DNA of 64,000 nucleotides from Candidatus Babeliales bacterium (GCA_050179755.1 JBFXEV010000001.1:425994-489993), one strand, 5' to 3'. Counted from the stretch's first letter, positions 123 to 42,791 are shown. Notes: generated by a model not told the origin, from the sequence alone. Numbers and translations are program-made.

Positions 123-536
123 CTATCTATTTTCTAATTCTTCATTTGTTTCAATTACATATACATATACCCCTGCTAACATATCTAATAATAAATTTAA
201 ATATGCAAGATAATCGGTAGATGCTTCAACTTCATCAATATGCAACCGGCGCTTAAATGGTTCTTCAGGGTATAACTTTACTGAATAATTCACAAATACT
301 ACTGCAGCACGCAAATCGCCCTTTTGAATGCCAAAAAAGTATCGTTGCTTCTTTGTTAATGAGTCTAGTATATCTTGAGCAATTATTTCGCTATTTTCAG
401 TGATTACTTGAGATGTATTTATAAAAATACCAGAACTTTCAGCATTCTTTAAAATCATCTTATAGATGTCTAATGCACTATCCGCAGAGTATTCAACACT
501 ATACTGAGCATGGAAAAGCTTAATTTCTTTATTCAT
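123..536 (-). CDS. Candidate immunity protein B1 of toxin copy 1
   Basis: Second small low-GC gene downstream of toxin 914-2938. Paralog of 8089-8496 (MxKEIKLFH, G.L.A..VFV..S.KLY..EP, DY.AYL..LLD.L). Confidence 0.65.
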   Translation of the reverse strand: MNKEIKLFHAQYSVEYSADSALDIYKMILKNAESSGIFINTSQVITENSEIIAQDILDSLTKKQRYFFGIQKGDLRAAVVFVNYSVKLYPEEPFKRRLHIDEVEASTDYLAYLNLLLDMLAGVYVYVIETNEELENR

Positions 537-539
537 ACA

Positions 540-911
540 TTACTCAACATTCATTGCTATGTCATATATAGAAAATTCATGTATCAATTCAACAAAAATA
601 CGCATATAATGCACCATATCAATATCATAAAAATCACCAATCGAAAGACCTATCTCTTTTTTATCACAATCTCGCGGATGTGACGCAATAAAAAACAACT
701 CTCCATTTAATCTACCGGTAATTGCATAAGTAAAATATACATTTTCTGTCATTAATGCATCCACAGCTTCATCCACATTAGCAAATTTATAGGTATCGTC
801 TACAGAAGAATATTCTAACCCTAACCGCATTCCTTTCTCTAATATTTGTTTAATATTTGCTCGTGTATAATACGCTCTTAATTCGATCGAATAAGAAAAT
901 GCCATCCCCAT
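540..911 (-). CDS. Candidate immunity protein A1 of toxin copy 1
   Basis: Starts 2 nt after the toxin stop. Paralog of 8499-8870 (GLSIGDFYDID.V.YMRIFVE). Confidence 0.7.
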   Translation of the reverse strand: MGMAFSYSIELRAYYTRANIKQILEKGMRLGLEYSSVDDTYKFANVDEAVDALMTENVYFTYAITGRLNGELFFIASHPRDCDKKEIGLSIGDFYDIDMVHYMRIFVELIHEFSIYDIAMNVE

Positions 912-913
912 AG

Positions 914-2938
914 TTATATTACCTTGAAAGATATGTGATTCTTGATTAATTTTTCTTTTACAATATGCGGAACAGGATTACTATAATACACTTCATATAA
1001 TTTTCCTTCCCTTTCAGCCAGCGAACGCATATAGCAAAGACGCGATATATGATCATCTATTTTGTCAATCTTGTCCCAATAATAATTCTTACATTCTATC
1101 CATTTTGATGCAGTTACCAAATCAATTTCTCCTTGCGGCACTTTTCTACCAAACTCTATAATCGATTCACCGCGTCTAACTAAAAAATTTGCAGATTTAA
1201 TTTCATACCCCGCACCGCGCGCAGTGCTTATTGCTCCTCCCTCTTTATTGAAATTATTAATAAATTTTTGAAAAGGGCCCTCTTTAGACAAAAAACCTTT
1301 TGTATCTTTAAAATTTTTATAAGCAAAATCTAATTCCGCATACTCTAAGCCTATAGATTGCATAGCATTATGCATCGGCACTGTATCTAATTCTTTCAAC
1401 TTCGATATTGGCTCATCAGGTAACCAGTTTCTCGGCTTTTCTTTTTTTAAACGCTGAGCTCCATCACCACCATTCTGTGACAGCAGCGTCAAGCCAGGTG
1501 ACGCCTTAGAAGCAACATCAAAAACTTCACCAAGCGTACCGCCAGCAATTTCTATCGCGCTCGCACTTGCATTCATAATATCTGCAAGCGCTGCATCATA
1601 ACAAATTGCAGCTTGCATGGTGCTTGGATCTAGTGGTAAATTTAAAAAATCACTATTCTCTAAAAATCTACTCAATCCTGATCCGGCATTTTTACTCAAC
1701 ATGCCCAATGCACCAAAGGTAACGCTCGTTAACGTAGATTCCACCGCATAAGCAGTGCCTACTTCTATGCCTTTTAGCATGGTATCATAATCAAAATCAT
1801 GGCATATCTTTGTTAAAGCATTCTTAACATCAAGCATTGTTTGGCGGGCGGCAAATACGTCTCGCTTCACAAGGCCCCAATACGTTATCTTGCCCTGCTG
1901 CAGGTCAATCGCATCTTGCAATGATTGCTCCATGTAGCGCAGCGTGTAATGACCTGCCTTATTGCCAATAACATGCACTGTTTTTGCAAGGCCGTATAAT
2001 GTGTTGCAAGCAGTATCAATCGGATGCAGCACTTTATTTGCGTAATTTACACCTCCTTTTGCTGCTCCTCTGCCCACTGCGGCGCTAATATCACACGTAA
2101 TCTCTTTTACTTGCAGCGTTAACTTGTATAATCCATGGCAAAAATCAGCAAATGAAAAAGCGTCGGCTACACGCCCTCTCTGATTATGCACGTGGCCTGC
2201 ATGCGCAAAGCGCGTAAGTGTTGATGCAATTGGCTTATAATTATAATCTTGCTGATACCGCAGTTTGCCTGCACCGTTGAGAATATCCACAATCTCTTGA
2301 TGCAAGACGCGTTGAATTTGGTTGCCATAACATTTTGGATATGTTGTTGTTGCAATTCCTTCTTCCTGCATCAAACAAAAAGCTTCATGAGTAATCCGAT
2401 AAGTTTCTTCTTGCCATATTTGATTACCCGTCAAATAATCATGCAGAGCCTCTGTGCGCTTTACTCTATACTGACGGGGCGTTAACGCATGTATATCATC
2501 ATATACTTCTATTTGTTGATATAACGCATAGTGCTCTTGCAGTGCTTGCTGTGTTTCACCAAAAATCTGTGCAATCTGCTTTTTATAAACATGCTGTTCT
2601 TCAAGTTTTCTTTTTGCTTGATTTTGAGCTTCTAATTCATATGCATGTTGAGCGGCTGCCTGCTCTGCTTGTTTTAATTTCTCTTGTTTTTCATGCACAA
2701 ATGATGGATGCTGATATTCTTCCTCTTCTTGCTTTCTTTTCTCTTTTTTATCTGAGCTCTTTTTAAATATACTAACAAAACATTTGCCTGCAGCGTATGC
2801 AAAAACACAAGTACCAACTATTACGCTAGCTGCTGCTTCAGCCGAATCTTTCACAAAACTAAATTCATTTTGTGCATAGAGTTGTTACATTTGGCCAAAC
2901 AAAAATAACCAAAGTAAAGCAAGATGTTTTATTTTCAT
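914..2938 (-). pseudogene. Polymorphic toxin copy 1 (PD-(D/E)XK-like tip) with nonsense codon in the signal peptide
   Basis: ATG at 2938 gives MKIKHLALLWLFLFGQM then TAA at 2887-2885, where copies 2 and 3 have CAA. The rest is open (ORF 914-2854). C-terminus has E...EIDLVT..KWIECK. Confidence 0.8.
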
Positions 2939-3105
2939 ATGTACTCCTAAGATGTATAAAAACTATGTGCAAGTATAATCCCAAAAGTAAACATGTAAAG
3001 AAAAAACATCTCGATATATTGATTAAATCAGCATATCAAGCAAGCTAAAAAGTTATATTTTATGCGTAAGAATAAGATTTTTTAACACTTTTTTTATTTT
3101 TTTTG
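2939..3105 (-). repeat. Conserved upstream/promoter block of toxin copy 1
   Basis: Similar to 7896-8060 and 10954-11100; TTTACA-N16-TATACT and an AGGAG RBS on the minus strand. Confidence 0.7.
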
Positions 3106-3211
3106 AAGAAGCAAAAAATTGCAACCTTTCTTGCCAATAAACAACATTTTTGCTACGATCCTTACAATTCTTTTACTTGTACAGTACCTATATAACACAT
3201 AAACAAAAAAG

Positions 3212-3973
3212 ATGTTCATTATGCAAACACAAGACTTTTCCATCAAGCAAGTTAAAGACTTTTCCATCAAGGAGGCGTTGCTTTTTGGCTTTAGAAAAAC
3301 AAATGAACATATATTATTGATTTTATCTATAGAACTTTTATTTTTTTGTATTTGGCTACTACAAGCTTTGGCCGGAGCAATTACACATGGCATTCCAGAT
3401 AAAATAGCAGACCCAAACTTTTTACAAAAAAGTATTTTAATTGTGGGGTCTATAATACATAACATGATACCTCTCTCGATAAAGAGCCAGGTCTTATTTG
3501 CCTTAAGTCTTTTCATTTTGGCATCGCTTCTTGCTACTTTAGTATTATTACAAGGTGTTCGCCGAATTATGCTTGATATATACGACAAAAATGAAAGTTC
3601 TCTTTCTCAAATATATTCCCAAGTAGATATTTTTTCGGTTATTTTATTGGCAAAATTCCTGTACTTGATATCAGTGCTTGCTGGTAGCATTTGCATAATT
3701 CTTCCAGGTATTTACTTATCGGCAAAATATGGCTTCTATGCATATGTTTTACTTGATGATCAAACACTTGGTCCAGTCGATGCATTTAAAAAAAGTGGTC
3801 AAATAACAAAAGGATTCGTAAATCACCTATGCGTATATAATATTTTATGGATTATTTTGCTTATTCTTTCAATTCTTACATGGATTGGCTGGATTATTAT
3901 CGTTCCCGTATTAGTGCTGTCTGATACCTACATATATCGCCAAATAACTAGTCAGTCTACAGAAACAAACTAA
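3212..3973 (+). CDS. Integral membrane protein (DUF975-like)
   Basis: Several TM helices; PG..L..KY.FY.Y..LD......AFK.S..ITKG pattern. Confidence 0.6.
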   Translation: MFIMQTQDFSIKQVKDFSIKEALLFGFRKTNEHILLILSIELLFFCIWLLQALAGAITHGIPDKIADPNFLQKSILIVGSIIHNMIPLSIKSQVLFALSLFILASLLATLVLLQGVRRIMLDIYDKNESSLSQIYSQVDIFSVILLAKFLYLISVLAGSICIILPGIYLSAKYGFYAYVLLDDQTLGPVDAFKKSGQITKGFVNHLCVYNILWIILLILSILTWIGWIIIVPVLVLSDTYIYRQITSQSTETN

Positions 3974-3981
3974 CGATCAAT

Positions 3982-4494
3982 ATGAGAGAATTTCGCATTA
4001 CTACACAACAAAAAAATTCTCTCTACATTACGTCTTGCATTTTCCCAGAATCAGAAAAAGATATTGCAGAAGAGTTTTTTGATGATTACTCAGATACATT
4101 CTCTGCATGCAACTACCAGGTTGCTATATATGCAATCACCTTCAAGTCTATCTCCAATAGGCCATTTACAGAACAAGATTTAATATACTTAAAATGGAAT
4201 GGGCCAACAGTAAATATTATTGCTGAAGTAAGCTTAGAAACAATGAAGCAAGAAGTAAGAGAGTTTGTTTCTTTTACTGAAAATTGGGATCGTCTCGAGG
4301 ATCATAACATTATCAATGAGCGAGTGATTAAGTTCTGGATGATAGTCAATAATTACGTTCAAATATCGAAATGTAAAATATACCAATACTGCGTACATCA
4401 TGATCACCCAGACATGGGAATTTTCCAAACTACTAGTTTTGCCTTAGTAGATCAGTCACGCGGCCTTTTTTTATTTATGGTATCTTTTGATTAA
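3982..4494 (+). CDS. Hypothetical protein (possible orphan immunity protein)
   Basis: 170 aa low-GC ORF inside the toxin array; function inferred from context only. Confidence 0.45.
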   Translation: MREFRITTQQKNSLYITSCIFPESEKDIAEEFFDDYSDTFSACNYQVAIYAITFKSISNRPFTEQDLIYLKWNGPTVNIIAEVSLETMKQEVREFVSFTENWDRLEDHNIINERVIKFWMIVNNYVQISKCKIYQYCVHHDHPDMGIFQTTSFALVDQSRGLFLFMVSFD

Positions 4495-4515
4495 CAATAT
4501 TATTAACATTGTTTA

Positions 4516-4620
4516 TTAACTTAATCTATAGGCACTTAAAACCTCCAGCGCCGCTGCACTATCAGGTTTTTCTTTAATGATTTGCAGCGCAATTTCAATG
4601 GCCTCATCTTGTTTTAATGC
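4516..4620 (-). pseudogene. 3' remnant of a third TPR-like immunity gene
   Basis: Reads ALKQDEAIEIALQIIKEKPDSAAALEVLSAYRLS*, which aligns with the C-termini of 5129-5578 and 5587-6027. No start; TAA immediately upstream. Confidence 0.65.
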
Positions 4621-4633
4621 TTACCCTAGAATC

Positions 4634-5092
4634 CTAAGTATTATTTTCTGCCTTTAATTCACGAGTTGTTTGACTTACTTGAGATACAGACCCATCAGAA
4701 TGAACTGTAAATATATACTCTTTGGTAATATCAGAGATATCCACCGATGCAGTGTTTTTATCATGAGTTACATATAAAACACCGGGCACAAAATAAGGAA
4801 CTTGACCAGAATCATTTGCTCCAATATAATGCTGCACACTAAAATCTTCATTGCCATCTTGCTTTAGCAAAAAAGTAAGTTCTATGTTTTGATTCATTTC
4901 ATTACGTAGAACAATTCGTCTAAATTCTTCAGTGAATTGTTTCATAAGTTTTTCACGATGCTCTGGGGTAAAATACTCATGCGTATTATTTAACATCAGC
5001 GCATTTCTATTGCTCACATATTCTTCATAGAATTTTGATAAAATAAAAGCTATTGCAACAACAAGTAATATGCTAATAAAATTAATATTCAT
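4634..5092 (-). CDS. Hypothetical protein with N-terminal membrane anchor
   Basis: 152 aa ORF with hydrophobic N-terminus. Confidence 0.55.
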   Translation of the reverse strand: MNINFISILLVVAIAFILSKFYEEYVSNRNALMLNNTHEYFTPEHREKLMKQFTEEFRRIVLRNEMNQNIELTFLLKQDGNEDFSVQHYIGANDSGQVPYFVPGVLYVTHDKNTASVDISDITKEYIFTVHSDGSVSQVSQTTRELKAENNT

Positions 5093-5128
5093 ATATTTTC
5101 ACTTTAAAAAATTTATCTGACTTTTTTG

Positions 5129-5578
5129 TTAATTATTTTGTTTTAATATTTCTATTGCATCATAATTACTAGGATCTATTTCAAGGATTTCTTGAGCTAG
5201 CAAAGCAGCATGTCTTTTATCTAACAGGTTTCCCGGTAATGAATAAAAATTAATTATTTGCATCTTATAATCAATATTATCTGTCTCTAGCTCTAACGCT
5301 CGTTTCGCATGCCAAAATCCCGCTGCATATGCACCTTCCATCTCATTAAGTATCTTAATAAGAATACGCGACGCTAAATAATGATATCCTGCAGTTTCCT
5401 TTTGAATCAATACCGCAATAACATATCCATAACTAAGAATCGATGGCTTTTCATAATTAATCGCAATCATTACTTGCCATAATTCATCTAAATTCAAATG
5501 CTTTGCAAGTACATGCGCCTGCGCAAACTCACCATAATAAAGTAATTTATAAAATTTTTGTACATCAATCGTTTGCAT
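5129..5578 (-). CDS. TPR-like candidate immunity protein 2 of toxin copy 2
   Basis: Likely start MQTIDV at 5578 (AAGGT upstream). H.LAS..L.......GAY..G..HA.RA.ELE..NI.YK shared with 5587-6027. Confidence 0.7.
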   Translation of the reverse strand: MQTIDVQKFYKLLYYGEFAQAHVLAKHLNLDELWQVMIAINYEKPSILSYGYVIAVLIQKETAGYHYLASRILIKILNEMEGAYAAGFWHAKRALELETDNIDYKMQIINFYSLPGNLLDKRHAALLAQEILEIDPSNYDAIEILKQNN

Positions 5579-5586
5579 ATGTGACC

Positions 5587-6027
5587 TTATCGTTGTATGC
5601 CATAACGCTCCAACACGTTTAAAGAAACACCGCATTCAGGATCTTCTTGCAATACTTCTTGAGCAATTTTTATTGCCTCTTCTTTATCAACAAGCTGCTC
5701 AGGTATATCATGAAATAAAATCATGAACCGTTTATATTCTATGTTCTTTGGCTCTAATTCACTAGCTCGCCTAGCATGAAAAAGACCAACGCTGTAAGCT
5801 CCATTATAAGCACATAAAGGCATTGCCATAAGATAAGACGCCCATCCGTGTTCTGCAGCACCTTCATGCTTTATTAATATGCTAGCCGCTAAGGTATACA
5901 AAGTAATATTATGTGTTTTATACGACCATTCTTCTATTCCTTTCGGTAAAACTTCTATATTTGTTATCAAATCTTTAACTTCATCAATTTTACCTATCAT
6001 CAACAAATCAATTATTTTTAAATTCAT
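5587..6027 (-). CDS. TPR-like candidate immunity protein 1 of toxin copy 2
   Basis: Likely start MNLKII at 6027 overlaps the toxin stop (ATGA). Helical-repeat pattern. Confidence 0.75.
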   Translation of the reverse strand: MNLKIIDLLMIGKIDEVKDLITNIEVLPKGIEEWSYKTHNITLYTLAASILIKHEGAAEHGWASYLMAMPLCAYNGAYSVGLFHARRASELEPKNIEYKRFMILFHDIPEQLVDKEEAIKIAQEVLQEDPECGVSLNVLERYGIQR

Positions 6028-7895
6028 GGTCGCACCCAAGAATTACCTATCATTTTTTTCCCATTCTCAATAAAAAAATTAACTTGTACGGTTTCCACAC
6101 CTATTTTCAAGAATCTCATCTTAACCATCTCATTTTGGAGCTTCTTATAGATGTTCTTTATATATAAATCTTCCTGCCCCTCTTTCATAACCTTAGTCAT
6201 TATTCGAGCTATGGAATCAAAGTCTTTTGGATCTTTAACGAGCCTATCCCATAAATGATGCTCTGCCATAATATGATCTTTGTTGTGCTGGCACAAGTTT
6301 GCGATATTATCGTCTATTTCACCTATACCTTCAATGTATATTTTATACCTATCTTGTAATGGATCCATTAACCCATTAGAATTACTGCCATTCGTACTTG
6401 CCGTAAAATTATTTTGTCCATCACCGCCATTCTGCGACAGCACCGTCAAGCCAGGTGACGCCTTAGAAGCAACATCAAAAACTTCACCAAGCGTACCGCC
6501 AGCAATTTCTATCGCGCTCGCACTTGCATTCATAATATCTGCAAGCGCTGCATCATAACAAATTGCCGCCTGCATAGTGCTTGGATCTAGTGGTAAATTT
6601 AAAAAATCACTATTCTCTAAAAATCTACTCAATCCAGACCCTGCATTTTTGCTCAACATGCCCAATACACCAAAGGTAACGCTCGTCAACGTAGATTCCA
6701 CCGCATAAGCAGTGCCCACTTCTACACCTTTTAACATGGTATCATAATCAAAATCATGGCATATCTTTGTTAAAGCATTTTTAACATCAAGCACTGTTTG
6801 GCGGGCGGCAAATACGTCTCGCTTCACAAGGCCCCAATATGTTATCTTGCCCTGCTGCAGGTCAATCGCATCTTGCAATGATTGCTCCATGTAGCGCAGC
6901 GTGTAATGACCTGCCTTATTGCCAATAATATGCACTGTTTTTGCAAGACCATATAATGTGTCTCGCGCTGCATCAAATGGATGCAGCAGTTTATTTGCGT
7001 AATTTACACCTCCTTTTGCTGCTCCTCTGCCAACTGCGGCGCCAATATCACATGTAATCTCTTTTACTTGCAGCGTTAACTTGTATAATCCATGGCAAAA
7101 ATCAGCAAATGAAAAAGCGTCGGCTACACGCCCTCTCTGATTATGCACGTGGCCTGCATGCGCAAAGCGAGTAAGTGTTGATGCAATGGGTTTATAATTA
7201 TAATCTTGCTGATATCGCAGAGATCCTGCGCCATTGAGAATATCCACAAACTCTTGATGCAAGACGCGTTGAATTTGATTGCCATAACACGTTGGATATG
7301 CTGTTACTTCAATGCATTCCTCCTGCATCAAACAAAAAGCTTCATGAGTAATTTGATACGTCTGTTCTTGCCATATTTGATTCCCCGTCAAACAATCATG
7401 CAAAGCCTCTGTGCGCTTTACTCTATACTGACGGGGAGTTAACGCATGTATATCATCATATACTTCTATCTGTTGATATAACGCATAGTGTTCTTGCAGT
7501 TCTTGCTGTGTTTCACTAAAAATCTGCGCCGTCTGCTTTTTATAAACACGCTGTTCTTCACATTTTCTTTTTGCTTGATTTTGAACTTCTAATTCATATG
7601 CATGTTGGGCAGCTGCTTGCTCTGCTTGCTTTAATTTTTCTTGTTTTTCACGCACAAATGATAGATGCTGATATTCTTCCTCTTCCTGCTTTCTTTTCTC
7701 TTTTTTATCTGAGCTCTTTTTAAATATACTAACAAAACATTTGCCTGCAGCGTATGCTAAAACACAAGTACCAACTATTACGCTAGCTGCTGCTTCAGCC
7801 GAATCTTTCACAAAACTAAATTCATTTTGTGCATAGAGTTGTTGCGTTTGACCAAAAACAAACAGCCAAAGTAAGGCAAGATGTTTTATTTTCAT
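6024..7895 (-). CDS. Polymorphic toxin copy 2 with His-motif putative RNase tip (Ntox35-like)
   Basis: Sec signal peptide; about 490 aa near-identical to copies 1 and 3; unrelated C-terminus with HIMAEHHLWDRL...IGNSWV. Confidence 0.75.
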   Translation of the reverse strand: MKIKHLALLWLFVFGQTQQLYAQNEFSFVKDSAEAAASVIVGTCVLAYAAGKCFVSIFKKSSDKKEKRKQEEEEYQHLSFVREKQEKLKQAEQAAAQHAYELEVQNQAKRKCEEQRVYKKQTAQIFSETQQELQEHYALYQQIEVYDDIHALTPRQYRVKRTEALHDCLTGNQIWQEQTYQITHEAFCLMQEECIEVTAYPTCYGNQIQRVLHQEFVDILNGAGSLRYQQDYNYKPIASTLTRFAHAGHVHNQRGRVADAFSFADFCHGLYKLTLQVKEITCDIGAAVGRGAAKGGVNYANKLLHPFDAARDTLYGLAKTVHIIGNKAGHYTLRYMEQSLQDAIDLQQGKITYWGLVKRDVFAARQTVLDVKNALTKICHDFDYDTMLKGVEVGTAYAVESTLTSVTFGVLGMLSKNAGSGLSRFLENSDFLNLPLDPSTMQAAICYDAALADIMNASASAIEIAGGTLGEVFDVASKASPGLTVLSQNGGDGQNNFTASTNGSNSNGLMDPLQDRYKIYIEGIGEIDDNIANLCQHNKDHIMAEHHLWDRLVKDPKDFDSIARIMTKVMKEGQEDLYIKNIYKKLQNEMVKMRFLKIGVETVQVNFFIENGKKMIGNSWVRP

Positions 7896-8060
7896 GAGTG
7901 CTCCTTAGATGTATAAAAACTATGTGCAAGTATAATCCAAAAACTAACATGTAAAGAGAAATTGTCTCAATCAATTGACTCAATCAATGTATTGAATACA
8001 TAAAAATGATATTTTAGCGCGCAAGAATAAGTTTTTTAACGTTCTTTTTATTTTTTTTGA
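7896..8060 (-). repeat. Conserved upstream/promoter block of toxin copy 2
   Basis: Homologous to 2939-3105 and 10954-11100. Confidence 0.7.
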
Positions 8061-8088
8061 GATGGAAAATAGCTTACGGTCGATAACT

Positions 8089-8496
8089 TTACAATTCTTC
8101 ATTTATCTCAAGACCATCAATACGAATACTCTCAAGTAAGTCGAGCAATATGTCTAAATATGCAACATAGTCAGGTGACGGTTCTCTTTCTTCAATATGT
8201 AATTTCATAATTAAGGGTTCTTGTAGATATAATTTTATTGAATTACTCACAAATACTATACGTGCATGTAGATTACCTCTTTGTATATAAAAACTATATT
8301 GTTTATTATTATCTATAGCTCTATATATTTGCTCTGCAATAACTGATACATCAAATTCTCTTTTATTTTCATTAGAGAAAATTGAAATAAAATGCTTTTG
8401 TGCATTTCCTAAAAATGTAGCATACACTTCATGTAAGTCTATATAATCCGGAGTTGAATCAAAATGAACATGAAATAATTTAATTTCTTTAAACAT
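8089..8496 (-). CDS. Candidate immunity protein B3 of toxin copy 3
   Basis: Paralog of 123-536; starts 2 nt after 8499. Confidence 0.65.
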   Translation of the reverse strand: MFKEIKLFHVHFDSTPDYIDLHEVYATFLGNAQKHFISIFSNENKREFDVSVIAEQIYRAIDNNKQYSFYIQRGNLHARIVFVSNSIKLYLQEPLIMKLHIEEREPSPDYVAYLDILLDLLESIRIDGLEINEEL

Positions 8497-8498
8497 AA

Positions 8499-8870
8499 TT
8501 ACTCTATATCAATTTTAAGGTCACAGATTGCAAAATTCCTTATCATTTCAACAAATATTCGCATATAATAGACAGCATCAATATCATAAAAATCACCTAT
8601 TGATAGGCCCAACTTCCTAATTTCAGGATCACGCGGTGAAGATGCAATATGTATAATATGACCATCTATTTTTCCTATAATCGAATAGGTCTCATATATA
8701 TTAATAGACAATAATGCTGCAACTGCATCATCGAGGCTTTCAAATTCTTGATCACATGCTACAGGAAAATATTTAAATCCAAACCTTATTCCTTGTTCAA
8801 GAATATTTTTAAAATTTTGTTTTGTATATGAAACATTTAGTAATATTTCATATGAATAGGCTCTACTCAA
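8499..8870 (-). CDS. Candidate immunity protein A3 of toxin copy 3
   Basis: Probable TTG start at 8870 after GAGGA (MSRAYSY aligns with MGMAFSY). Paralog of 540-911. Confidence 0.7.
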   Translation of the reverse strand: MSRAYSYEILLNVSYTKQNFKNILEQGIRFGFKYFPVACDQEFESLDDAVAALLSINIYETYSIIGKIDGHIIHIASSPRDPEIRKLGLSIGDFYDIDAVYYMRIFVEMIRNFAICDLKIDIE

Positions 8871-8871
8871 T

Positions 8872-10953
8872 TTATTCCTCACAAAGAGTTATACCAATTT
8901 TTATTAATCTTGCTCTAATGTCTTCTGGCACACCATTACTAAAGCAAATTTCATATATTTTTCCATCTTTTTTGGCAAGGTCTCTTGCATGACCCGCTCG
9001 TGAAAGCAACCTTTTTACTTTGTCTTCGGAAATTTTATCCCAGAACCAATCTTTACACTCGATCCACTTAGTTTCTGTAACTATATCAATTTCACAATCT
9101 AGCACTTTTTTACCAAATTCAATTATACGTTCTTTATTTTTAAATAGTCTATTGGCTGTTTTAATTTCAAAAGCTGCTCCTTGAGCAGTTTTTGTACTTT
9201 TCGCTGCTCTAAAATTATTAATAAATTTTTGGAATGGACCATCTTTAGTTAAAAATCCCTTTATATCTTTAAATTGCTCATAAGTTATTCTTAACTCTTC
9301 ATATTCAAGTCCTACTCTTTGCATTTGATGATATGTTGATGGAGTGTTTAATTCTTCTAATTTTAAACATGCTTCCTCAGATAGCCAGTTTCTTGGCTTT
9401 TCTCTAGGAGCATTTTGACTGTTTTGAGTATTATTGCCAAATCCACTTATTTGTGCGCCGTCATCAGACGTACTATTTGGTCCACTGCCTCCTGATCCAG
9501 CATTCGATGCCAATGTTAACACAGGAGCTATTTTAGATGCTGCGTCAAAAGCCCCACTAGCTATTTGAACAGCACCTGCACTTGCATTCATAATATCTGC
9601 AAGCGCTGCATCATAACAAATTGCCGCCTGCATAGTGCTTGGATCTAATGGTAAATTTAAAAAATCGCTATTCTCTAAAAATCTACTCAATCCTGATCCG
9701 GCATTTTTGCTCAACATGCCCAATGCACCAAAGGTAACGCTCGTTAACGTAGATTCCACCGCATAAGCAGTGCCTACTTCTATGCCTTTTAGCATGGTAT
9801 CATAATCAAAATCATGGCATATCTTTGTTAAAGCATTCTTAACATCAAGCATTGTTTGGCGGGCGGCAAATACGTCTCGCTTCACAAGGCCCCAATACGT
9901 TATCTTGCCCTGCTGCAGGTCAATCGCATCTTGCAATGATTGCTCCATGTAGCGCAGCGTGTAATGACCTGCCTTATTGCCAATAACATGCACTGTTTTT
10001 GCAAGGCCGTATAATGTGTTGCAAGCAGTATCAATCGGATGCAGCACTTTATTTGCGTAATTTACACCTCCTTTTGCTGCTCCTCTGCCCACTGCGGCGC
10101 TAATATCACACGTAATCTCTTTTACTTGCAGCGTTAACTTGTATAATCCATGGCAAAAATCAGCAAATGAAAAAGCGTCGGCTACACGCCCTCTCTGATT
10201 ATGCACGTGGCCTGCATGCGCAAAGCGCGTAAGTGTTGATGCAATTGGCTTATAATTATAATCTTGCTGATACCGCAGTTTGCCTGCACCGTTGAGAATA
10301 TCCACAATCTCTTGATGCAAGACGCGTTGAATTTGATTGCCATAACATTTTGGATATGTTGTTGTTGCAATTCCTTCTTCCTGCATCAAACAAAAAGCTT
10401 CATGCGTAATTTGATACGTCTGTTCTTGCCATACGTGATTACCCGTCAAACAATCATGCAGAGCCTCTGTGCGCTTTACTCTATATTGATGGGGAGTTAA
10501 CGCATGTATATCATCATATACTTCTATCTGTTGATATAACGCATAGTGTTCTTGCAGTTCTTGCTGTGTTTCACTAAAAATCTGCGCCGTCTGCTTTTTA
10601 TAAACACGCTGTTCTTCACATTTTCTTTTTGCTTGATTTTGAACTTCTAATTCATATGCATGTTGGGCAGCTGCTTGCTCTGCTTGCTTTAATTTTTCTT
10701 GTTTTTCACGCACAAATGATAGATGCTGATATTCTTCCTCTTCCTGCTTTCTTTTCTCTTTTTTATCTGAGCTCTTTTTAAATATACTAACAAAACATTT
10801 GCCTGCAGCGTATGCTAAAACACAAGTACCAACTATTACGCTAGCTGCTGCTTCAGCCGAATCTTTCACAAAACTAAATTCATTTTGTGCATAGAGTTGT
10901 TGCGTTTGACCAAAAACAAACAGCCAAAGTAAGGCAAGATGTTTTATTTTCAT
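8872..10953 (-). CDS. Polymorphic toxin copy 3 with PD-(D/E)XK-like nuclease tip
   Basis: Intact signal peptide, shared N-terminal body, Gly/Ser/Asn linker, GAAFEIK...EIDIVTETKWIECKDW. Confidence 0.8.
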   Translation of the reverse strand: MKIKHLALLWLFVFGQTQQLYAQNEFSFVKDSAEAAASVIVGTCVLAYAAGKCFVSIFKKSSDKKEKRKQEEEEYQHLSFVREKQEKLKQAEQAAAQHAYELEVQNQAKRKCEEQRVYKKQTAQIFSETQQELQEHYALYQQIEVYDDIHALTPHQYRVKRTEALHDCLTGNHVWQEQTYQITHEAFCLMQEEGIATTTYPKCYGNQIQRVLHQEIVDILNGAGKLRYQQDYNYKPIASTLTRFAHAGHVHNQRGRVADAFSFADFCHGLYKLTLQVKEITCDISAAVGRGAAKGGVNYANKVLHPIDTACNTLYGLAKTVHVIGNKAGHYTLRYMEQSLQDAIDLQQGKITYWGLVKRDVFAARQTMLDVKNALTKICHDFDYDTMLKGIEVGTAYAVESTLTSVTFGALGMLSKNAGSGLSRFLENSDFLNLPLDPSTMQAAICYDAALADIMNASAGAVQIASGAFDAASKIAPVLTLASNAGSGGSGPNSTSDDGAQISGFGNNTQNSQNAPREKPRNWLSEEACLKLEELNTPSTYHQMQRVGLEYEELRITYEQFKDIKGFLTKDGPFQKFINNFRAAKSTKTAQGAAFEIKTANRLFKNKERIIEFGKKVLDCEIDIVTETKWIECKDWFWDKISEDKVKRLLSRAGHARDLAKKDGKIYEICFSNGVPEDIRARLIKIGITLCEE

Positions 10954-10986
10954 GAGTGCTCCTTAGATGTATAAAAACTATGTGCA

Positions 10987-11014
10987 AGTATAATCCCAAA
11001 AGTAAACATGTAAA
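10987..11014 (-). promoter_or_regulatory. Sigma70-like promoter of toxin copy 3
   Basis: TTTACA (11014-11009)-N16-TATACT (10992-10987), conserved in all three copies; AAGGAG RBS. Confidence 0.55.
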
Positions 11015-11104
11015 GAAAAAACATCTCGATATATTGATTAAATCAATGTATTGAATACATAAAAATGATATTTTAGCGCGCAATAATAAGCTTTTTATAC
11101 ACTA

Positions 11105-13024
11105 CTACTCAGCAAGACGTGCTATAACCTCTTTATTTACTTCTCTTTTTTCTGCAGCGCGCATTGCATGTTTCCACATAACATCACGCACATTATAGCC
11201 CGGGTGATGTGCTGCATTATAAGCTTCAGCCACCTTAAACCCGATGAACAGTTCTAGTATTTCTGCCGTCTCGCGCATCTTCCATAAACGCTGCATTTCT
11301 TGCGAAAGATCATGCACTGTTTTGCCCGTGTGCAAGTTAGGCATACTCACCGGCATGTCCATTAGCCTTGTATCATCAGATGCCCATGCCACCCTTGGCC
11401 ATAAAAGATATACTAGAGTCCTCAGTTTTTCTAATTGCCCTTTATAGCGATAACTATTGTACAGTAATACTTCAATTGGTTTTAGATGATCATAGTTTTC
11501 TAGCAACTTATCACCGTCCAAACTGCGCACAAAATCAAACACAGCCGGGTCCATTAAGGCGCCATGCTCTGCAAGCGCGTGATACATTGTATTACCTTCA
11601 TAATCTTGTTTGTTCACATCAATATACTTTGCAACCAATTTCGCCATGGCAACTGAACGCGGGCAAAAAGATCTGTGCACGTCAGCATAAAGCTTGTGCC
11701 GTAGCATGTATTGTATAAACGCACAATCATCTTCAAGAAAAGCATGCTTTACCATGTGGCGCAATTCAGAACTATCAAATAAATATCCCAATCGAGTGGC
11801 AATAGTTAATGCAACCCAGCCACGTACGGTATGCCAATTTAAAAATATTCTCTTAAATTCTTGCTCTAAAAGAATACCCGCATCATCAGACACTGAAATA
11901 TCCTTGCGCTTGCACGCCAAAACCCGTCTACCGCCACTATAACTTGCATCTGTGTTTAATACTTTGCAAGATAAATCATCTGATCGCTCGGGCACAAGGG
12001 GCACGCATTGCTGCATAAATGAAAGCGTAACCACTTGATCAACCTCATCAATCTCTTGATGTTCTTCACAAATCAATGTGGCAACATCTTGCGCTCTATA
12101 ACAAACACCTTGTAGGTCAGGTATGTCCTGCGTATAAGCAAGCCCCAACGCACAAGCAACAGGTGCATAACGATTAATCAGAAGATAATCTTTGTATGTT
12201 TTGCCATGAGCATCTTTTACTGTGCCATCAACTCCTTGCGCCAGCAAGAATATAAGCATTGGCACAATGCATTCTTCTTTTTGCTCTAGATTGTAGAGCG
12301 CTGCGCAATGCAATGGCGTACGTCCTTGTGCATCGCACGCATGCACGTCAGCTCCTTTAGCTATGCAAAACTTTAAAAGTTTAATTATTTCGTTGCCAGC
12401 ATGCCCGCGGCTTTTAGGCATAGGAGGGTGTGTACACATATGATGTAGTATTGTTTTATTATCTCTGGCAGCACGCACACTATAATCTGCGCCAAGAAAT
12501 AACCAAAGCCGCTTGGCCATTTTTTTACTTTGCGCAATAAAAAAAAATGGTAATTCTTCACTGCTACAAATTCCCTTACGACGTGCAGGTTCGCATGTAT
12601 TTTCGGTATACAATGTATGTATAAGCCAACTTGGAGCAGGTCTATATGGTGCAATAGTTGCAATAAAACGCGGCAAGTCTTTCTCTATCGCCTTTTTAAG
12701 CAATGCTCGTAAATCGAATTCATCTGCAACGCCCACGGCTACACAGCATGCGGCCTTATATTGTTGCTCCATAGTATCAAGAGCCGCCACGTGCGCGAGC
12801 GCATCTTTGCGCACAGAATATGGACTCGCGCGCAAGCGCTGTGCTGTGCGATCTTCTTGTAATTCCCAAGTGGGCCAATATCCATTAAAAGTACGTGCAG
12901 CCAGAATAGGCCAACCGTGATTTGCAAACTCTTCTTTGGTGTTAAATGGTTTTATAATATCCATCGCGCCCACCACATGAGCTACCGCAATCATACTCAG
13001 CAACACAATTCTCTGTATAATCAT
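11105..13024 (-). CDS. Secreted ankyrin-repeat protein
   Basis: Signal peptide (...VVGA-MD); GADVHACDAQGRTPLHCAA. Paralog of 20210-21982. Confidence 0.8.
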   Translation of the reverse strand: MIIQRIVLLSMIAVAHVVGAMDIIKPFNTKEEFANHGWPILAARTFNGYWPTWELQEDRTAQRLRASPYSVRKDALAHVAALDTMEQQYKAACCVAVGVADEFDLRALLKKAIEKDLPRFIATIAPYRPAPSWLIHTLYTENTCEPARRKGICSSEELPFFFIAQSKKMAKRLWLFLGADYSVRAARDNKTILHHMCTHPPMPKSRGHAGNEIIKLLKFCIAKGADVHACDAQGRTPLHCAALYNLEQKEECIVPMLIFLLAQGVDGTVKDAHGKTYKDYLLINRYAPVACALGLAYTQDIPDLQGVCYRAQDVATLICEEHQEIDEVDQVVTLSFMQQCVPLVPERSDDLSCKVLNTDASYSGGRRVLACKRKDISVSDDAGILLEQEFKRIFLNWHTVRGWVALTIATRLGYLFDSSELRHMVKHAFLEDDCAFIQYMLRHKLYADVHRSFCPRSVAMAKLVAKYIDVNKQDYEGNTMYHALAEHGALMDPAVFDFVRSLDGDKLLENYDHLKPIEVLLYNSYRYKGQLEKLRTLVYLLWPRVAWASDDTRLMDMPVSMPNLHTGKTVHDLSQEMQRLWKMRETAEILELFIGFKVAEAYNAAHHPGYNVRDVMWKHAMRAAEKREVNKEVIARLAE

Positions 13025-13510
13025 AAATCTCTTTGCTCCCGTATTCTCCTGTATGATCAAGCTTTGTTTTATTAAACTTGTTTATGCACGACAATTGCTC
13101 TTCTTTGCCATATTGCATAAAACGATAACTGTGCTCTGCTAACACGTCAAGCGCAGTCTGTGACCAAAAACAAACAGCTAAAGTACTGAACATCAAGAAG
13201 TTGAATTAAAAGCACAACGGAGTGAGCTCTCTTGTGTTTCTGCATTTTTTGGAATAATGTCTGCATTTACCTTTATGCAGGCAGAAAGTGATGTAACTTT
13301 GCGATTAATTTCTTTCGCTTCTGCTTTACTTGCGACATCTCACCATGTTACCAAACAACAGTTATCCGCTGGCACTATTTTTGAGACTAGAAAGAAAGAA
13401 TTAGCTACACAGTTAAATATAACTAAAATCAAAATTGAACCTGATGAATTTATAAGCTGTGTAAAAAACAATCATTAAATTCAGTAAAATTTTATTACTC
13501 TGCAGCCTTC

Positions 13511-14074
13511 TCATGCAATCTGGCAACACACGCGGCTTTTTTCATGCGCATATGCAAGATACTGCTGAGAATATTCACTGTTAATATACTTTGATTGTTC
13601 AAATATTTCATTATACAATCTAAATCCACCCTGCTCACAAAGCGCCCTATGCACCGTATTTGCCCTACGCACCATAACAAGCACTTTTTGAGCCTCCGGA
13701 TACTGCCGCAGCACATGCTGCACATACGCATTGCGGATCATAAGCTCCTGTTCTTTATATAAAATATTAATGGGCAGCGTACGTATAAGCACTGTGTTAG
13801 TATCCCTCAACAATTCATAGGTTGTGCACCCTACAAGTTCATAACCCAAAAACGCAAAAGCTAGTTTTAACTTATTATCACCCAGTGCAGCGCGTGTTTT
13901 AGCAAAAATCCTTGCAAGATAAGCATCAACTGGCTCAGTAACCCCTAGTGTTGCAGGAGATATCTCTTTATAAAGATGAGAAAAGTAGCGGATAAAAATG
14001 GCTTTAAATTGAACTAATTCATTGCTGCTTATTTCTTTTATTTCTTGAACACGAATATCAGCACTTGATTGCAT
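13511..14074 (-). CDS. GNAT-fold acetyltransferase-like protein
   Basis: ELVGCTTY and VRRAN...ALCEQGGF motifs. Confidence 0.55.
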   Translation of the reverse strand: MQSSADIRVQEIKEISSNELVQFKAIFIRYFSHLYKEISPATLGVTEPVDAYLARIFAKTRAALGDNKLKLAFAFLGYELVGCTTYELLRDTNTVLIRTLPINILYKEQELMIRNAYVQHVLRQYPEAQKVLVMVRRANTVHRALCEQGGFRLYNEIFEQSKYINSEYSQQYLAYAHEKSRVCCQIA

Positions 14075-14105
14075 AAAATGATATTTTCTTTAGAACTGTT
14101 GTAGT

Positions 14106-14729
14106 TTATTTAGACGTTTTTGTGACTTCTTTCAACTTATCTTCATATTCTTTGAATGTTGAAAGTCCAACAGCTTTTCTACGCATATCTATATTTTCTG
14201 AATCTTCAATCTCATAAGGAACCATTACGCCATCTTGCAAATGAAATTGCGTGCCATATCTTTGTGGTCTATTTTCTGCCATTGCTACACGATCATAAAG
14301 ATAGGCAGTATTTTTGCAACTTGTTTCTTTTTTTAAACAAAGTTTTTCTAAACGTGTAAGCACTTCTTTCTGAAACGCAGGATCAAGATCGGCATGTTGC
14401 ACCAAAAGCCATGCATCATTATCTGCCTCTTCTCCAAACGCAGAAATAATGGGCCATTGCTCAGGCAAACTTTGTAATATATCTTTTAACACTGCGGTAT
14501 TTTTTCTATCAATTGCATGAATTTGCTCCCATAACGCCGTATCAAACTGTGCATAATCAACTTTTAAACGAAGGTCCTGATCTTCAGCAACCATTGCTTT
14601 AAGCTGTTTTTGAATTGATTCTCTTTGTGATCCCGGCTTTTTCATACAATAGAGAGCGCTCACCACAATAAGAAGCAAAAGAACAAGCATTATTTTATTA
14701 TAACTCTGCATGCTTACTCTTTCAGACAA
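14106..14729 (-). CDS. DUF6624-like secreted protein
   Basis: DQDLR, AWLLVQHAD, AYLYDRV...PQRYGTQ, RRKAVGL. Confidence 0.75.
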   Translation of the reverse strand: MSERVSMQSYNKIMLVLLLLIVVSALYCMKKPGSQRESIQKQLKAMVAEDQDLRLKVDYAQFDTALWEQIHAIDRKNTAVLKDILQSLPEQWPIISAFGEEADNDAWLLVQHADLDPAFQKEVLTRLEKLCLKKETSCKNTAYLYDRVAMAENRPQRYGTQFHLQDGVMVPYEIEDSENIDMRRKAVGLSTFKEYEDKLKEVTKTSK

Positions 14730-14767: not shown

Positions 14768-15628
14768 TCATGGTTTGACCGTACTTAAATCTGTTTCACT
14801 GCAAGCGATATTTTCATTAGTACTCAAAAATAGTTCAGGCCTATACTCAAAATGCATCGTATCATAATGATACATTTTACCACCCCAAATAAAACCATAT
14901 TTTTCAAAAACTTCTACAATTTCCCACGGCACGGTATTGCGATACTGCAATAGTTCGTCTTCACTGATTTGGCGATTTTCTGCTTTAAGATCCCATTGCC
15001 AATAGTTTGATTCTTGTGCATTAATATCTAATGTCATGCCAAAACTATGAGCGCTTAAACGATTAGTGTTTGCAATAACGCGCCAGCAATACGTGCCACC
15101 TGGATTTGCAAGATATTTAATCATATCTGGATATTCACCAACAAGTTCCTCAAGCTCATCAGAAATCGCTTGTATCTTTGCATGCACGTTATTAATTCTG
15201 GTTACCCGCAAAATATACGTGCTAGATCCAAATACATTTGGCATCCATGCAACGTGTTCTAAATTATCTTCAACTTCTGCTGGCGTGGCACCATACATTT
15301 TTTTAAAAAAGGGTTCATATCGTATTCTGCCAGGATCTTCATTTGGCAATTCTAAAGGCTCACCGATTTGATAGCAGGCTTGCAGCACATGATCTTTTAA
15401 TGTTGGCTTATCAAGTTTTTCTTGCATGGTTTCAAAAAGTTCACCAAGTAGCATGCTAGTGCCATCATGCCAAAGAATATATTCATGAGTAACAAATTGA
15501 ATATGATCTGGATACGCATTTTGTAACCGTATGAGTGCTTGATCTAATTGATCCATACAATGTAGAGTACTCCAGAAAAGTAATGCAAATAAGCACATAC
15601 TTTTAGCCACAAAAAATTCCTCAAGCAT
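14768..15628 (-). CDS. M15 family peptidoglycan metallopeptidase
   Basis: SAHSFGMTLDIN and GFIWGG..YHYDTMHFEYRPE zinc-ligand motifs. Confidence 0.85.
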   Translation of the reverse strand: MLEEFFVAKSMCLFALLFWSTLHCMDQLDQALIRLQNAYPDHIQFVTHEYILWHDGTSMLLGELFETMQEKLDKPTLKDHVLQACYQIGEPLELPNEDPGRIRYEPFFKKMYGATPAEVEDNLEHVAWMPNVFGSSTYILRVTRINNVHAKIQAISDELEELVGEYPDMIKYLANPGGTYCWRVIANTNRLSAHSFGMTLDINAQESNYWQWDLKAENRQISEDELLQYRNTVPWEIVEVFEKYGFIWGGKMYHYDTMHFEYRPELFLSTNENIACSETDLSTVKP

Positions 15629-15684
15629 TTATAGTTTTGGTATACTAAAAACAATGATACCATTTTACCCATCAAAGGAACAAC

Positions 15685-24053: not shown

Positions 24054-24076
24054 TTTATCCAAATGGAGGATTCACT

Positions 24077-28264: not shown

Positions 28265-28266
28265 TC

Positions 28267-29427: not shown

Positions 29428-29492
29428 ACAAAAAACTCCGTTTATTAAAAAAAGATTTAAAAATAATACACAAATAATATAGCTATCAGCTA

Positions 29493-30269: not shown

Positions 30270-30303
30270 ATAAAGCTTCCCTTCATTTTCAATCTCTACA
30301 TCT

Positions 30304-30334
30304 AGCGTACAGCATAACGTAACGTGAGAGTCAA
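30304..30334 (-). promoter_or_regulatory. MerR-type promoter with 19-bp spacer
   Basis: TTGACT-N19-TACGCT with dyad TCACGT-T-ACGTTA in the spacer. Confidence 0.8.
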
Positions 30335-30479
30335 GCATTGAGCAAAATAACGTTATAAATCTTTAAAAAGGACAGTAGAGTGGAGCCCGCCGGAAGCAAT
30401 TAACTAGTGGATTACTATTCACCAACCAGCTACCAAGAGCATCAACCTTCACGCCAATCTTTTTTTTAGAAGCAAATTA

Positions 30480-42699: not shown

Positions 42700-42791
42700 T
42701 TAAACAACTTGCATCACACAAGCTCTTGATCCACCGCCCTTATTAGTATTAAACTAGAAGCAACAAAAAAATAATACCTAAGGTAGATCAT

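Follow-up and report, generated by a model that had tools for sequence, protein, structure and literature searches.

A probable polymorphic toxin/immunity locus with exchangeable nuclease tips on a previously undescribed carrier domain in a Babeliales-like bacterium

We read the locus described here as a probable polymorphic toxin/immunity system. It would belong to the signal-peptide (Sec-dependent) class and rests on a carrier domain that has not been described before. It lies in a 64,000-nt stretch of DNA, hereafter the window, in which an ORF scan places three paralogous genes on the minus strand, with open frames at 914..2854 (g1), 6024..7895 (g2) and 8872..10953 (g3), in line with the three minus-strand genes of the initial annotation. 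The features by which Zhang et al. (2012) recognise such systems recur here, namely a constant N-terminus joined to a variable, predictedly toxic C-terminus, tips from nuclease families, adjacent genes that co-vary with the tip, and orphan cassettes, the last of these in a syntenic relative, L001. The full-length protein is predicted to run from a cleavable signal peptide through a hydrophobic helix, a charged helix and an all-alpha core to a junction, a Gly/Ser linker and an exchangeable nuclease.

8872..10953, minus strand: g3, intact full-length candidate toxin, 693 aa (ORF, alignments, AlphaFold2 body model, hydrophobicity)
10953-10888, minus strand: g3 signal peptide, residues 1-22
10857-10780, minus strand: g3 helix H2, small-residue and hydrophobic, about residues 33-58
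About residues 67-128 of g3, minus strand: long helix, K/E/Q-rich
10506-10024, minus strand: g3 conserved core, about residues 150-310, with the motifs GNxIQxxLHxE and FADFCHG
9654-9577, minus strand: g3 junction LPLDPST...ADIMNASA, residues 434-459, followed by the Gly/Ser linker and then the tip
8875..9438, minus strand: g3 tip, predicted PD-(D/E)xK (restriction-endonuclease-fold) nuclease domain, residues 506-693 (tip alignment, AlphaFold2, Foldseek against the PDB)
8499..8882, minus strand: immA3, leaderless small gene, first 3' of g3, candidate immunity gene; 127 aa (GTG start) or 123 aa (TTG start at 8870)
8089..8496, minus strand: immB3, leaderless second small gene 3' of g3, 135 aa, candidate second immunity or accessory gene
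10954..11104, minus strand: g3 upstream region, copied along with the gene (alignment, motif scan)
6024..7895, minus strand: g2, intact full-length candidate toxin, 623 aa, body as in g3 (ORF, alignment)
6596-6519, minus strand: g2 junction, residues 434-459
6395-6027, minus strand: g2 tip, Pfam Ntox35, predicted RNase, about residues 501-623
5587..6027, minus strand: n1, helical protein of 146 aa with its ATG overlapping the stop of g2, candidate Ntox35 immunity
5129..5578, minus strand: n2, 149-aa paralog of n1, starting 8 nt past the n1 stop
4634..5092, minus strand: small protein of 152 aa with a hydrophobic stretch at its N-terminus; cassette membership uncertain
914..2938, minus strand: g1, third copy, ATG at 2938-2936, interrupted signal peptide
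917-1450, minus strand: g1 tip, predicted PD-(D/E)xK domain, 54% identical to the g3 tip
540..911, minus strand: immA1, 123 aa, 49% identity to immA3
123..536, minus strand: immB1, 137 aa, 40% identity to immB3

Each of the three genes is tightly coupled to small downstream genes, as had been claimed: an ATGA overlap joins g2 to n1, the step from g3 to immA3 is an 11-nt overlap with the GTG start or a 1-nt gap with the TTG start, and the gaps in the g1 cassette measure 2 and 3 nt. The tips and their downstream genes also proved AT-richer than the body (GC 0.27-0.34 against 0.40; whole window 0.386). The gene at 4634..5092 follows n2 on the same strand after 36 nt and has a GC content of 0.31; a homolog was sought in L001 and none was found. 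About 150 nt 5' of each ATG are duplicated among g1, g2 and g3 as well, and in g3 this region holds AGGAG ahead of the start codon, together with TTTACA-16-TATACT at 11014-10987, which resembles a promoter. Such a promoter-like site stands upstream of both g3 and g1, while over the region as a whole 48 were found against 49 expected by chance, which is no excess. No tRNA gene that could mark an island occurs in the 64,000 nt. Other genes of the window encode ankyrin, WD40 and RING proteins, and an AbiEii-type toxin-antitoxin system is found elsewhere in it.

The bodies of the three genes share >90% identity over about 460 aa and diverge sharply past the junction and the Gly/Ser linker. Identity to g3 over the whole length is 78% and 82%, with long invariant runs to about residue 459, and the alignment bears out the near-identical body that had been noted from stretches such as CYGNQIQRVLHQE and AVGRGAAKGG. 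The DNA confirms the abrupt switch into different C-termini: near g3 coordinate 9555, about 200 nt suffice for identity to drop from 0.94-1.00 to 0.17-0.53. The body DNA has a mosaic make-up: g2 and g3 are 100% identical over the 5' 400 nt, g1 and g3 are 100% identical over about 600 nt between about 10343 and 9743, and near 9643 g1 matches g2 at 97%. This pattern indicates gene conversion among g1, g2 and g3.

A signal peptide had been assigned to all three proteins; this holds for g2 and g3 but not for g1, where an in-frame TAA occupies codon 18 at 2887-2885 (ACG CAA in g2 and g3, ATG TAA in g1). The g1 frame reopens at a GTG at 2854 (codon 29) and encodes 646 aa from there, from a start with neither a Shine-Dalgarno-like sequence nor a signal peptide. 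Because the TAA cuts the g1 signal peptide, only g2 and g3 are intact. Together with a relative, P0004, that stops after 40 residues of an Ntox35-like tip, and with a frameshifted extra immA in L001, this nonsense codon could suggest decaying paralogs or variable surface proteins devoid of toxic function. Such an origin is scarcely credible, however, in view of the intact g2 and g3, the catalytic PD-(D/E)xK residues that are invariant in six divergent tips, an Ntox35 match above the Pfam cutoff, and the g1 tip itself, which stays open for 178 codons.

The proteins of g2, g3 and L001 and the relatives P0004, P0005 and P0007 all show an n-h-c signal peptide whose cut follows (V/A/L)-x-A, and 99 of the 149 relatives listed passed a crude hydrophobicity test for one. 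The region ahead of the cut (...GQTQQLYA, followed by QNE) contains no Cys and no lipobox. Judged by the signal peptide, the toxins may be exported through Sec. The helix that follows the signal peptide, H2, has a Kyte-Doolittle 19-residue mean of 1.6-2.07, borderline to clearly membrane-like, and the 20 residues after it in g3 include 7 K/R. By the positive-inside rule, H2 could therefore be a stop-transfer anchor that leaves the tip in the cytoplasm. The proteins would then be membrane-anchored, non-exported toxin/antitoxin modules for addiction or abortive defence, a reading to which the hydrophobic H2 with its K/R cluster on the C-terminal side, the leaderless antidote candidates and the AbiEii-type system of the window would all be congenial. 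We nevertheless hold it to be highly improbable: the distant members P0012-P0014 keep the signal peptide and are devoid of H2, a carrier of about 460 aa accompanied by orphan cassettes is atypical of toxin-antitoxin modules, and the EndoU, Ntox35, Ntox21, Ntox17 and colicin E3-type tips of the family belong to exported-toxin families in a table of Zhang et al. (PMC3482391).

In the polymorphic toxin/immunity system that we favour, the tips would be the toxic parts. The g2 tip matches Ntox35 (Pfam PF15534) with an E-value of 4.3e-6 and 27.7 bits against a gathering cutoff of 23.6, the match covering residues 537-621 and profile positions 3-78 of 78. For the g3 tip, AlphaFold2 gave a model with a pLDDT of 89.2 and a pTM of 0.84, whose best Foldseek matches in the PDB are the nuclease domains of Cdn1/Card1 (Card1/Can2) and VC1899 (six matches at E<=1e-3); weaker ones include SfsA, NucS/EndoMS, AF1548 and the Burkholderia pseudomallei CdiA-CT 4g6v (E 0.03). 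The model has the alpha-beta-beta-beta-alpha-beta core and the alignment the E...D...ExK signature by which PD-(D/E)xK members are recognised, with E91, D118, E127, C128 and K129 invariant across six tip sequences. By model and alignment, the g1 and g3 tips are thus both predicted to carry the PD-(D/E)xK nuclease fold. The g3 tip matched no Pfam family at E<=0.1, Tox-REase families included; a PD-DExK family is named in a figure legend of PMC4378268. A word-indexed search for this tip on other carriers returned only the window protein and a relative, P0153, which is weak evidence either way.

The small genes behind the tips follow the tip type. The pair immA and immB stands behind the PD-(D/E)xK tip in g1, in g3 and in an orphan cassette of L001, immB partnering immA in every case; n1 and n2, which share 34% identity over 138 aa, stand behind the Ntox35 tip of g2; and the EndoU tip of L001 is followed by three other paralogs. 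Three tip types are thus accompanied by three unrelated downstream gene sets, and the co-variation proposed in the initial annotation is true in the window and in one Babeliales genome. We infer that these small genes are putative immunity genes. Inspection by eye of the first 40 residues revealed no N-terminal hydrophobic leader in these proteins. Neither immA3 nor n1 matches a family in Pfam or NCBIfam, n2 has a weak TPR-like Pfam match under the cutoff, and none of the candidates matches a known immunity family. Look-alikes of immA are leads only (a CDI immunity component, 0.81; a TsiV-like model, TM 0.56). The PD-(D/E)xK tip has two downstream genes and not one; like the missing match to a known immunity family, this counts against the favoured reading.

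L001 is a Babeliales genome whose locus matches the synteny of the window, being flanked upstream by ankyrin genes and downstream by a DUF975 fragment. The full-length carrier of L001 ends in an EndoU tip, and a PD-(D/E)xK tip cassette stands as an orphan at 13285-14106. Homology of this orphan to the full-length genes begins at the junction and linker and includes an 84-nt repeat at 77% identity. A further immA/immB pair in L001 lacks a toxin. Orphan tip cassettes were sought in the window as well, and none was found. P0153 shows a direct tip swap: its body is of the L001 type (56% identity across 576 aligned positions, reaching about residue 565), but its tip is PD-(D/E)xK.

A HMMER search of a protein library with the shared body, the profile search envisaged at the outset, did find a family, with 208 proteins at E<=1e-3, 29 at <=1e-10 and 12 at <=1e-30. 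The architecture is not due to chance, because it recurs in a second genome and in these 208 library proteins. Among the 149 relatives listed (of the 208; outside the window), 43 carry a Pfam toxin domain, always C-terminal, and the other 106 none; the six toxin families are EndoU (34), Ntox35 (3), Ntox21 (2), Ntox17 (2), Ribonuclease PF00545 (1, barnase-type) and Cytotoxic PF09000 (1, colicin E3-type). The C-terminal ends fall into about 33-35 sequence clusters, 35 when the C-terminal 80 aa are compared among 126 proteins with a length of 450 aa or more. Carrier cores at least 70% identical bear unrelated tips in 9 of 11 pairs, a proportion to be read with the clustering of the library at 50% identity, which enriches pairs of same body and different tip. 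Built with FastTree on about 160 columns, the core tree is a weak one. Word-indexed body searches returned 5 and 7 proteins, all non-window ones coming from one assembled-read source, and tblastn of a plasmid and a phage collection gave no match to the carrier.

The carrier core is all-alpha, with the signature GNxIQxxLHxE ... FADFCHG. As first annotated, it shows no Pfam match to Rhs, FHA, LXG, PAAR or MafB/DUF1020, either in the window proteins or among the best 25 of 103 families for 69 carriers (E<=5). Searches of NCBIfam, the PDB and BFVD gave no match, and Foldseek with the body model returned nothing from the PDB at E<=1e-3 (best E 0.43) and nothing from BFVD, so that the suspicion of a possible new family was upheld. 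PDB sequence-profile matches to the carrier were Q-rich noise only, for example the Shaker channel. Homology to MafB_N, PT-TG or another pre-toxin domain was set aside as well, these being language-model leads only (0.84, 0.83) and absent among the best 25 of 103 Pfam families (69 carriers, E<=5). The GNxIQ and YNxxG motifs are reminiscent of lytic transglycosylase motifs; that reading was rejected too, with no lysozyme-like Foldseek match and no SLT among the Pfam families listed. Polymorphic toxins in which a lineage-specific N-terminal domain comes after a signal peptide are a class already described by Zhang et al. (PMC3482391), so that the carrier is new here but the kind of system is known. 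The carrier domain is previously undescribed, within the known Sec-signal, MafB-like kind of polymorphic toxin/immunity system. The parallel full-length copies, initially thought unusual, are indeed present but not unprecedented, as Zhang et al. describe them for Amoebophilus. Among the papers searched, none joins polymorphic toxins with Dependentiae or Babeliales.

We propose that the leaderless downstream proteins would neutralise the cognate tip in the cytoplasm of the producer, that recombination at the conserved junction and linker may swap tip-plus-immunity cassettes between copies and genomes, and that gene conversion would keep the bodies alike. The most likely use would be antagonism between related bacteria within one host cell. 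To our knowledge, only a type II system has been reported for the Babeliales lineage. The proteins could instead be host-directed secreted nucleases, exported for instance via such a type II system to break down or manipulate host or organelle nucleic acids, with the downstream proteins only protecting the producer before export. The ankyrin, WD40 and RING genes of the window fit an intracellular protist parasite, the Chromulinavorax paper (PMC6561590) places endoU in host biopolymer breakdown and reports many signal-peptide nucleases, and Zhang et al. (PMC3482391) argue that toxins of intracellular bacteria mostly target the host. The same authors treat adjacent immunity genes as a mark of inter-bacterial conflict even in amoeba symbionts, and here candidate immunity genes are tightly linked to each tip, dozens of tip clusters sit on near-identical carriers, and an orphan tip cassette occurs in L001 next to an immA/immB pair that lacks a toxin. 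We consider a host-directed role unlikely on this account, with a small but real chance of being right; a dual use against host and bacteria may be compatible with all these points. A bolder variant of the interbacterial reading, in which the carrier would be a self-contained delivery device of a new type by which obligate intracellular Babeliales inject nucleases into sister cells or bacterium-derived host organelles in a shared protist host, is doubtful and rather a long shot; if true, kin-level warfare would be general in this parasitic phylum.

Polymorphic toxins have mostly been studied in free-living or extracellular bacteria. They are rare in intracellular symbionts according to Zhang et al. 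(PMC3482391). On the polymorphic toxin reading, a Babeliales-like protist parasite keeps a diversified arsenal of predicted nucleases with probable antidotes, and its relatives keep recombining theirs. The locus also lends itself to tests of whether intracellular bacteria that co-infect a host compete with one another. The core profile is a handle for finding such loci in metagenomes, and several tip and candidate immunity families that lacked annotation are supplied. The 'endoU' genes of the phylum, read as digestive enzymes in PMC6561590, merit re-reading.

Among known systems, CdiA-CT/CdiI resembles the locus in its tip with cognate immunity, its orphan modules and its recombination at a conserved pre-toxin motif, and CdiA-CT 4g6v shares the PD-(D/E)xK fold predicted for the g3 tip. 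In contrast to CdiA/CdiB, the scanned proteins (window; best 25 of 103 Pfam families for 69 carriers) have no TPS domain, filamentous haemagglutinin repeats, VENN motif or CdiB partner. RHS/YD repeats, PAAR (type VI) and LXG (type VII) had no Pfam match in the window proteins or among the families listed for the relatives scanned. The Rickettsia interbacterial antagonism modules (PMC9111745) set a precedent for toxin/antidote genes aimed at other bacteria in an obligate intracellular lineage; they are of another carrier type and from another phylum. Amoebophilus APD1/APD2 and Microscilla effectors share the lineage-specific N-terminal domain after a signal peptide, the polymorphic C-termini and the parallel full-length copies, and one such example is in an amoeba endosymbiont (PMC3482391). 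Those effectors carry a lipobox, are scarcely ever accompanied by immunity genes and are taken to act on the host, whereas the proteins here, compared by description only, have no Cys before the cleavage site, downstream genes for each tip and an orphan cassette in a relative. MafB/MafI of Neisseria is alike in its signal peptide, family-specific N-terminal domain, exchangeable nuclease tips and adjacent immunity gene. The maf loci also have a conserved junction before the tips, and orphan cassettes. Unlike in MafB, Pfam PF06255 (DUF1020) is absent at E<=0.1 on g2 and g3 and among the best 25 of 103 families for 69 carriers, the sole link to the carrier being the language-model lead of 0.84; moreover, the all-alpha carrier here has a hydrophobic helix in addition, as well as a charged stalk, an ankyrin gene lies upstream, and the bearer is an intracellular Babeliales-like organism. 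The EndoU, Ntox35, Ntox21, Ntox17 and colicin E3-type tips are nonetheless all listed with MafBN, in the 'T2SS (MafBN)' class, in the table of PMC3482391.

The locus shows the traits that define polymorphic toxin systems, and its predicted toxins are three minus-strand paralogs in which a common body (the carrier) is followed by a junction, a Gly/Ser linker and a variable C-terminal tip:

8872-10953, minus strand: g3, ORF of 693 aa
6024-7895, minus strand: g2, ORF of 623 aa
914-2854, minus strand: g1, ORF of 646 aa from a GTG, the true ATG lying at 2938

Over their whole length, g2 and g1 are 78% and 82% identical to g3 in protein alignment, with invariant runs reaching to about residue 459 and C-termini beyond it that are unrelated or distantly related. 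At the DNA level, the body identity of 0.9-1.0 among g1-g3 drops sharply near g3 coordinate 9555, so that both the near-identical body and the abrupt C-terminal divergence described in the initial annotation were confirmed. The bodies form a mosaic, since g2 equals g3 (100%) across the first 400 nt, g1 equals g3 (100%) from about 10343 to 9743, and around 9643 it is g1 and g2 that match (97%), as expected where copies have undergone gene conversion with one another. The duplication also takes in about 150 nt 5' of each ATG, with AGGAG ahead of the start. The signal peptide that had been attributed to all three genes is intact in g2 and g3 but interrupted in g1, whose codon 18 is an in-frame TAA (2887-2885; ATG TAA in g1 versus ACG CAA in g2/g3). 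Past this stop the open frame starts at a GTG, with neither a ribosome-binding sequence nor a signal peptide, so that g1 is a silenced or recently broken copy; the 178 codons of its unique tip are still open. Two genes on the opposite strand (3212-4494, plus), one for a DUF975-like membrane protein and one an uncharacterised ORF of 170 aa, separate the g1 cassette from g2/g3. The cluster of L001, a syntenic locus in another Babeliales genome, is likewise bounded by a DUF975 fragment, and g1 therefore lies outside the ancestral edge of the locus.

The g2 tip matches Pfam Ntox35 (E 4.3e-6, 27.7 bits against a curated cutoff of 23.6), listed in a table of PMC3482391 as a predicted BECR-fold RNase whose immunity protein is not known. 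The g1 and g3 tips are 54% identical, and a Pfam scan at E<=0.1 assigned neither to a family. When they were aligned with the L001 orphan tip and with three library proteins bearing this tip (P0076, P0099 and P0128), E91, D118, E127, C128 and K129 proved invariant across the six sequences. An AlphaFold2 model of the g3 tip (mean pLDDT 89.2, pTM 0.84) gave six Foldseek matches in the PDB at E<=1e-3, all to the nuclease halves, restriction-endonuclease-like in fold, of Cdn1/Card1 and VC1899, as well as weaker ones to SfsA, NucS/EndoMS, AF1548, HindIII and the B. pseudomallei CdiA-CT 4g6v. From the invariant residues, the model and these matches, the g1 and g3 tips are assigned to the PD-(D/E)xK nucleases.

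The small downstream genes follow the tips. A homologous pair, immA and immB (49% and 40% identity between loci), stands after both g1 and g3, while g2 is followed by n1 and n2, helical paralogs of each other (34% identity) that differ from immA/immB. None of these candidate immunity genes has a Pfam or NCBIfam match above cutoff, and inspection by eye of the 40 N-terminal residues of each product showed no hydrophobic leader. The g2 stop overlaps the next ATG as ATGA, the gene behind g3 overlaps it by 11 nt if GTG is taken as the start codon, or begins 1 nt past the g3 stop if TTG is, and the remaining toxin/downstream-gene junctions measure 2, 3 and 8 nt. GC content is 0.40 in the bodies, 0.32-0.34 in the tips and 0.27-0.34 in the downstream genes (whole window, 0.386). 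The initial annotation's tight coupling, co-variation with the tip and higher AT content of tips and downstream genes than of the body thus all hold. A membrane-anchored 152-aa ORF (4634-5092) may or may not be part of the g2 cassette.

L001, on a Babeliales metagenome-assembled chromosome, was the sole locus retrieved from a scan of species-representative genomes. It shares with the window the ankyrin genes upstream and the DUF975 fragment downstream, and contains, in this order (own coordinates):

carrier homolog, 706 aa, with an EndoU tip (Pfam E 5.9e-13)
12148-13297: three tandem paralogous small genes after the EndoU tip, 34-45% identical, with no relation to immA, immB or n1
13285-14106: orphan PD-(D/E)xK tip ORF
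immA/immB pair after the orphan tip
14955-15734: second immA/immB pair, toxin-less, its immA frameshifted

The orphan ORF resembles the full-length genes from the junction and linker onward (g3 residue 437), and an 84-nt repeat (77% identity) is shared with the resident carrier gene. Its N-terminus is a fragment resembling a fourth small paralog, which looks like a cassette-displacement scar. Compared with the window pairs at 123-911 and 8089-8882, the toxin-less pair is chimeric, its immA being nearest to that of g1 (64%) and its immB to that of g3 (69%), which suggests that immA and immB may reassort independently. In the library protein P0153, a body of the L001 type (56% identical across 576 aligned positions that reach about residue 565) is joined to a PD-(D/E)xK tip, a direct tip swap.

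A full HMMER search of 1.84 billion representative proteins with the body (residues 1-485) returned 208 relatives at E<=1e-3, of which 29 reach <=1e-10 and 12 reach <=1e-30; the tip surveys rest on the best 150 of the 208. Of the 149 among these that come from outside the window (P0004-P0152), 43 have a Pfam family at E<=1e-4 and 106 have none, and in none of the 149 did any family cover the carrier region.

C-terminal Pfam families among the 149 relatives
EndoU_bacteria: 34 proteins
Ntox35: 3 proteins
Ntox21: 2 proteins
Ntox17: 2 proteins
Ribonuclease PF00545: 1 protein
Cytotoxic PF09000: 1 protein

For the 126 proteins that reach 450 aa or more, the C-terminal 80 residues fell into 35 BLAST clusters, 14 of them with at least two members. 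A short, weakly resolved FastTree of the carrier core from 130 proteins, whose ends group into 33 tip clusters, shows 72 changes of tip type, compared with a lower limit of 32 and with 84.5 (sd 1.5) for shuffled labels. Tips differ in 9 of 11 core pairs at least 70% identical and in 38 of 42 pairs 50-70% identical, in a library whose clustering at 50% identity enriches same-core, different-tip pairs. The many different tips sought with the body profile were recovered (33-35 clusters in the 126-130 proteins compared).

The carrier N-terminus begins with positive charge, followed by a hydrophobic run and then a (V/A/L)-x-A site, as can be seen in g2, g3, P0004, P0005, P0007 and L001, and has no Cys that could make a lipobox. 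A second hydrophobic helix (H2), rich in small residues (Kyte-Doolittle mean 1.6-2.07 over 19 residues) and followed by a K/R/E-rich segment, could hold the protein in the membrane with the C-terminal end in the cytoplasm, instead of letting it be exported past the inner membrane; H2 occurs in close relatives, and more distant ones keep the signal peptide alone. The AlphaFold2 model of the carrier (69 sequences, mean pLDDT 74) is all-alpha but for two short strands, with a confident region at about residues 80-270 (pLDDT >90 in most 10-residue blocks) that comprises a roughly 60-residue helix together with a compact core. Among the 69 sequences G205 is invariant, and conservation is 90% or higher at R161, Q209, H213, E215, C267, G291, G295 and P306. 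The near-invariance of the polar R161, Q209, H213, E215 and C267, within 10024-10506 (g3 residues ~150-310), hints that the core may be enzymatic or involved in processing, and not a passive scaffold. A likeness of the core to lytic-transglycosylase motifs was unsupported. Nothing similar to the carrier was found in the PDB by profile, in the PDB and BFVD by fold of the model, in NCBIfam, or on plasmids and phages.

Elsewhere in the window, an AbiEii-type nucleotidyltransferase toxin (Pfam E 1.1e-16) and its overlapping upstream ORF (22002-23307, minus) are probably a type IV toxin-antitoxin pair. Four successive WD40 beta-propeller paralogs (41260-47288, plus), nearby ankyrin-repeat proteins (11105-13060, 33391-34227, 39598-41133, 51053-52195) and a RING-finger protein (62404-63552) are candidates for eukaryote-like effectors, typical of protist parasites. 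Also on the plus strand are a small ChaB-domain protein (52452-52874, Pfam E 8.6e-18), a UvrA-like double ABC ATPase with a PadR-family regulator directly upstream (23496-26674), and a short 433-aa protein with GIY-YIG and UvrC-RNaseH domains (37619-38920). Drug-response-type regulators (two TetR, one MerR/TipAS) with a PAF-acetylhydrolase-like hydrolase (27644-30338, 32429-32998) form a cluster that one would not expect a genome of some 1.5 Mb to carry.

Use of the toxins against the host is a serious rival explanation of the locus; we favour antagonism between related bacteria, because of the orphan tip and toxin-less immA/immB pair of L001, the variety of tips borne by near-identical carriers, and the strict linkage of tip and immunity. 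Type II is the sole secretion system reported for Babela in the accessible text of PMC4378268. No paper joining 'polymorphic toxin' with names of this phylum was found; related proteins may appear in the supplementary data of PMC3482391 and PMC4378268. The suspicion that the carrier is a new family was upheld across Pfam, NCBIfam, PDB and BFVD, and on that comparison we consider the domain new. By its features, the locus would belong to the T2SS/Sec-dependent class of Zhang et al. 2012, for which the accessible text (PMC3482391) describes lineage-specific N-terminal domains, e.g. MafB-N, Microscilla-N and APD1/2.
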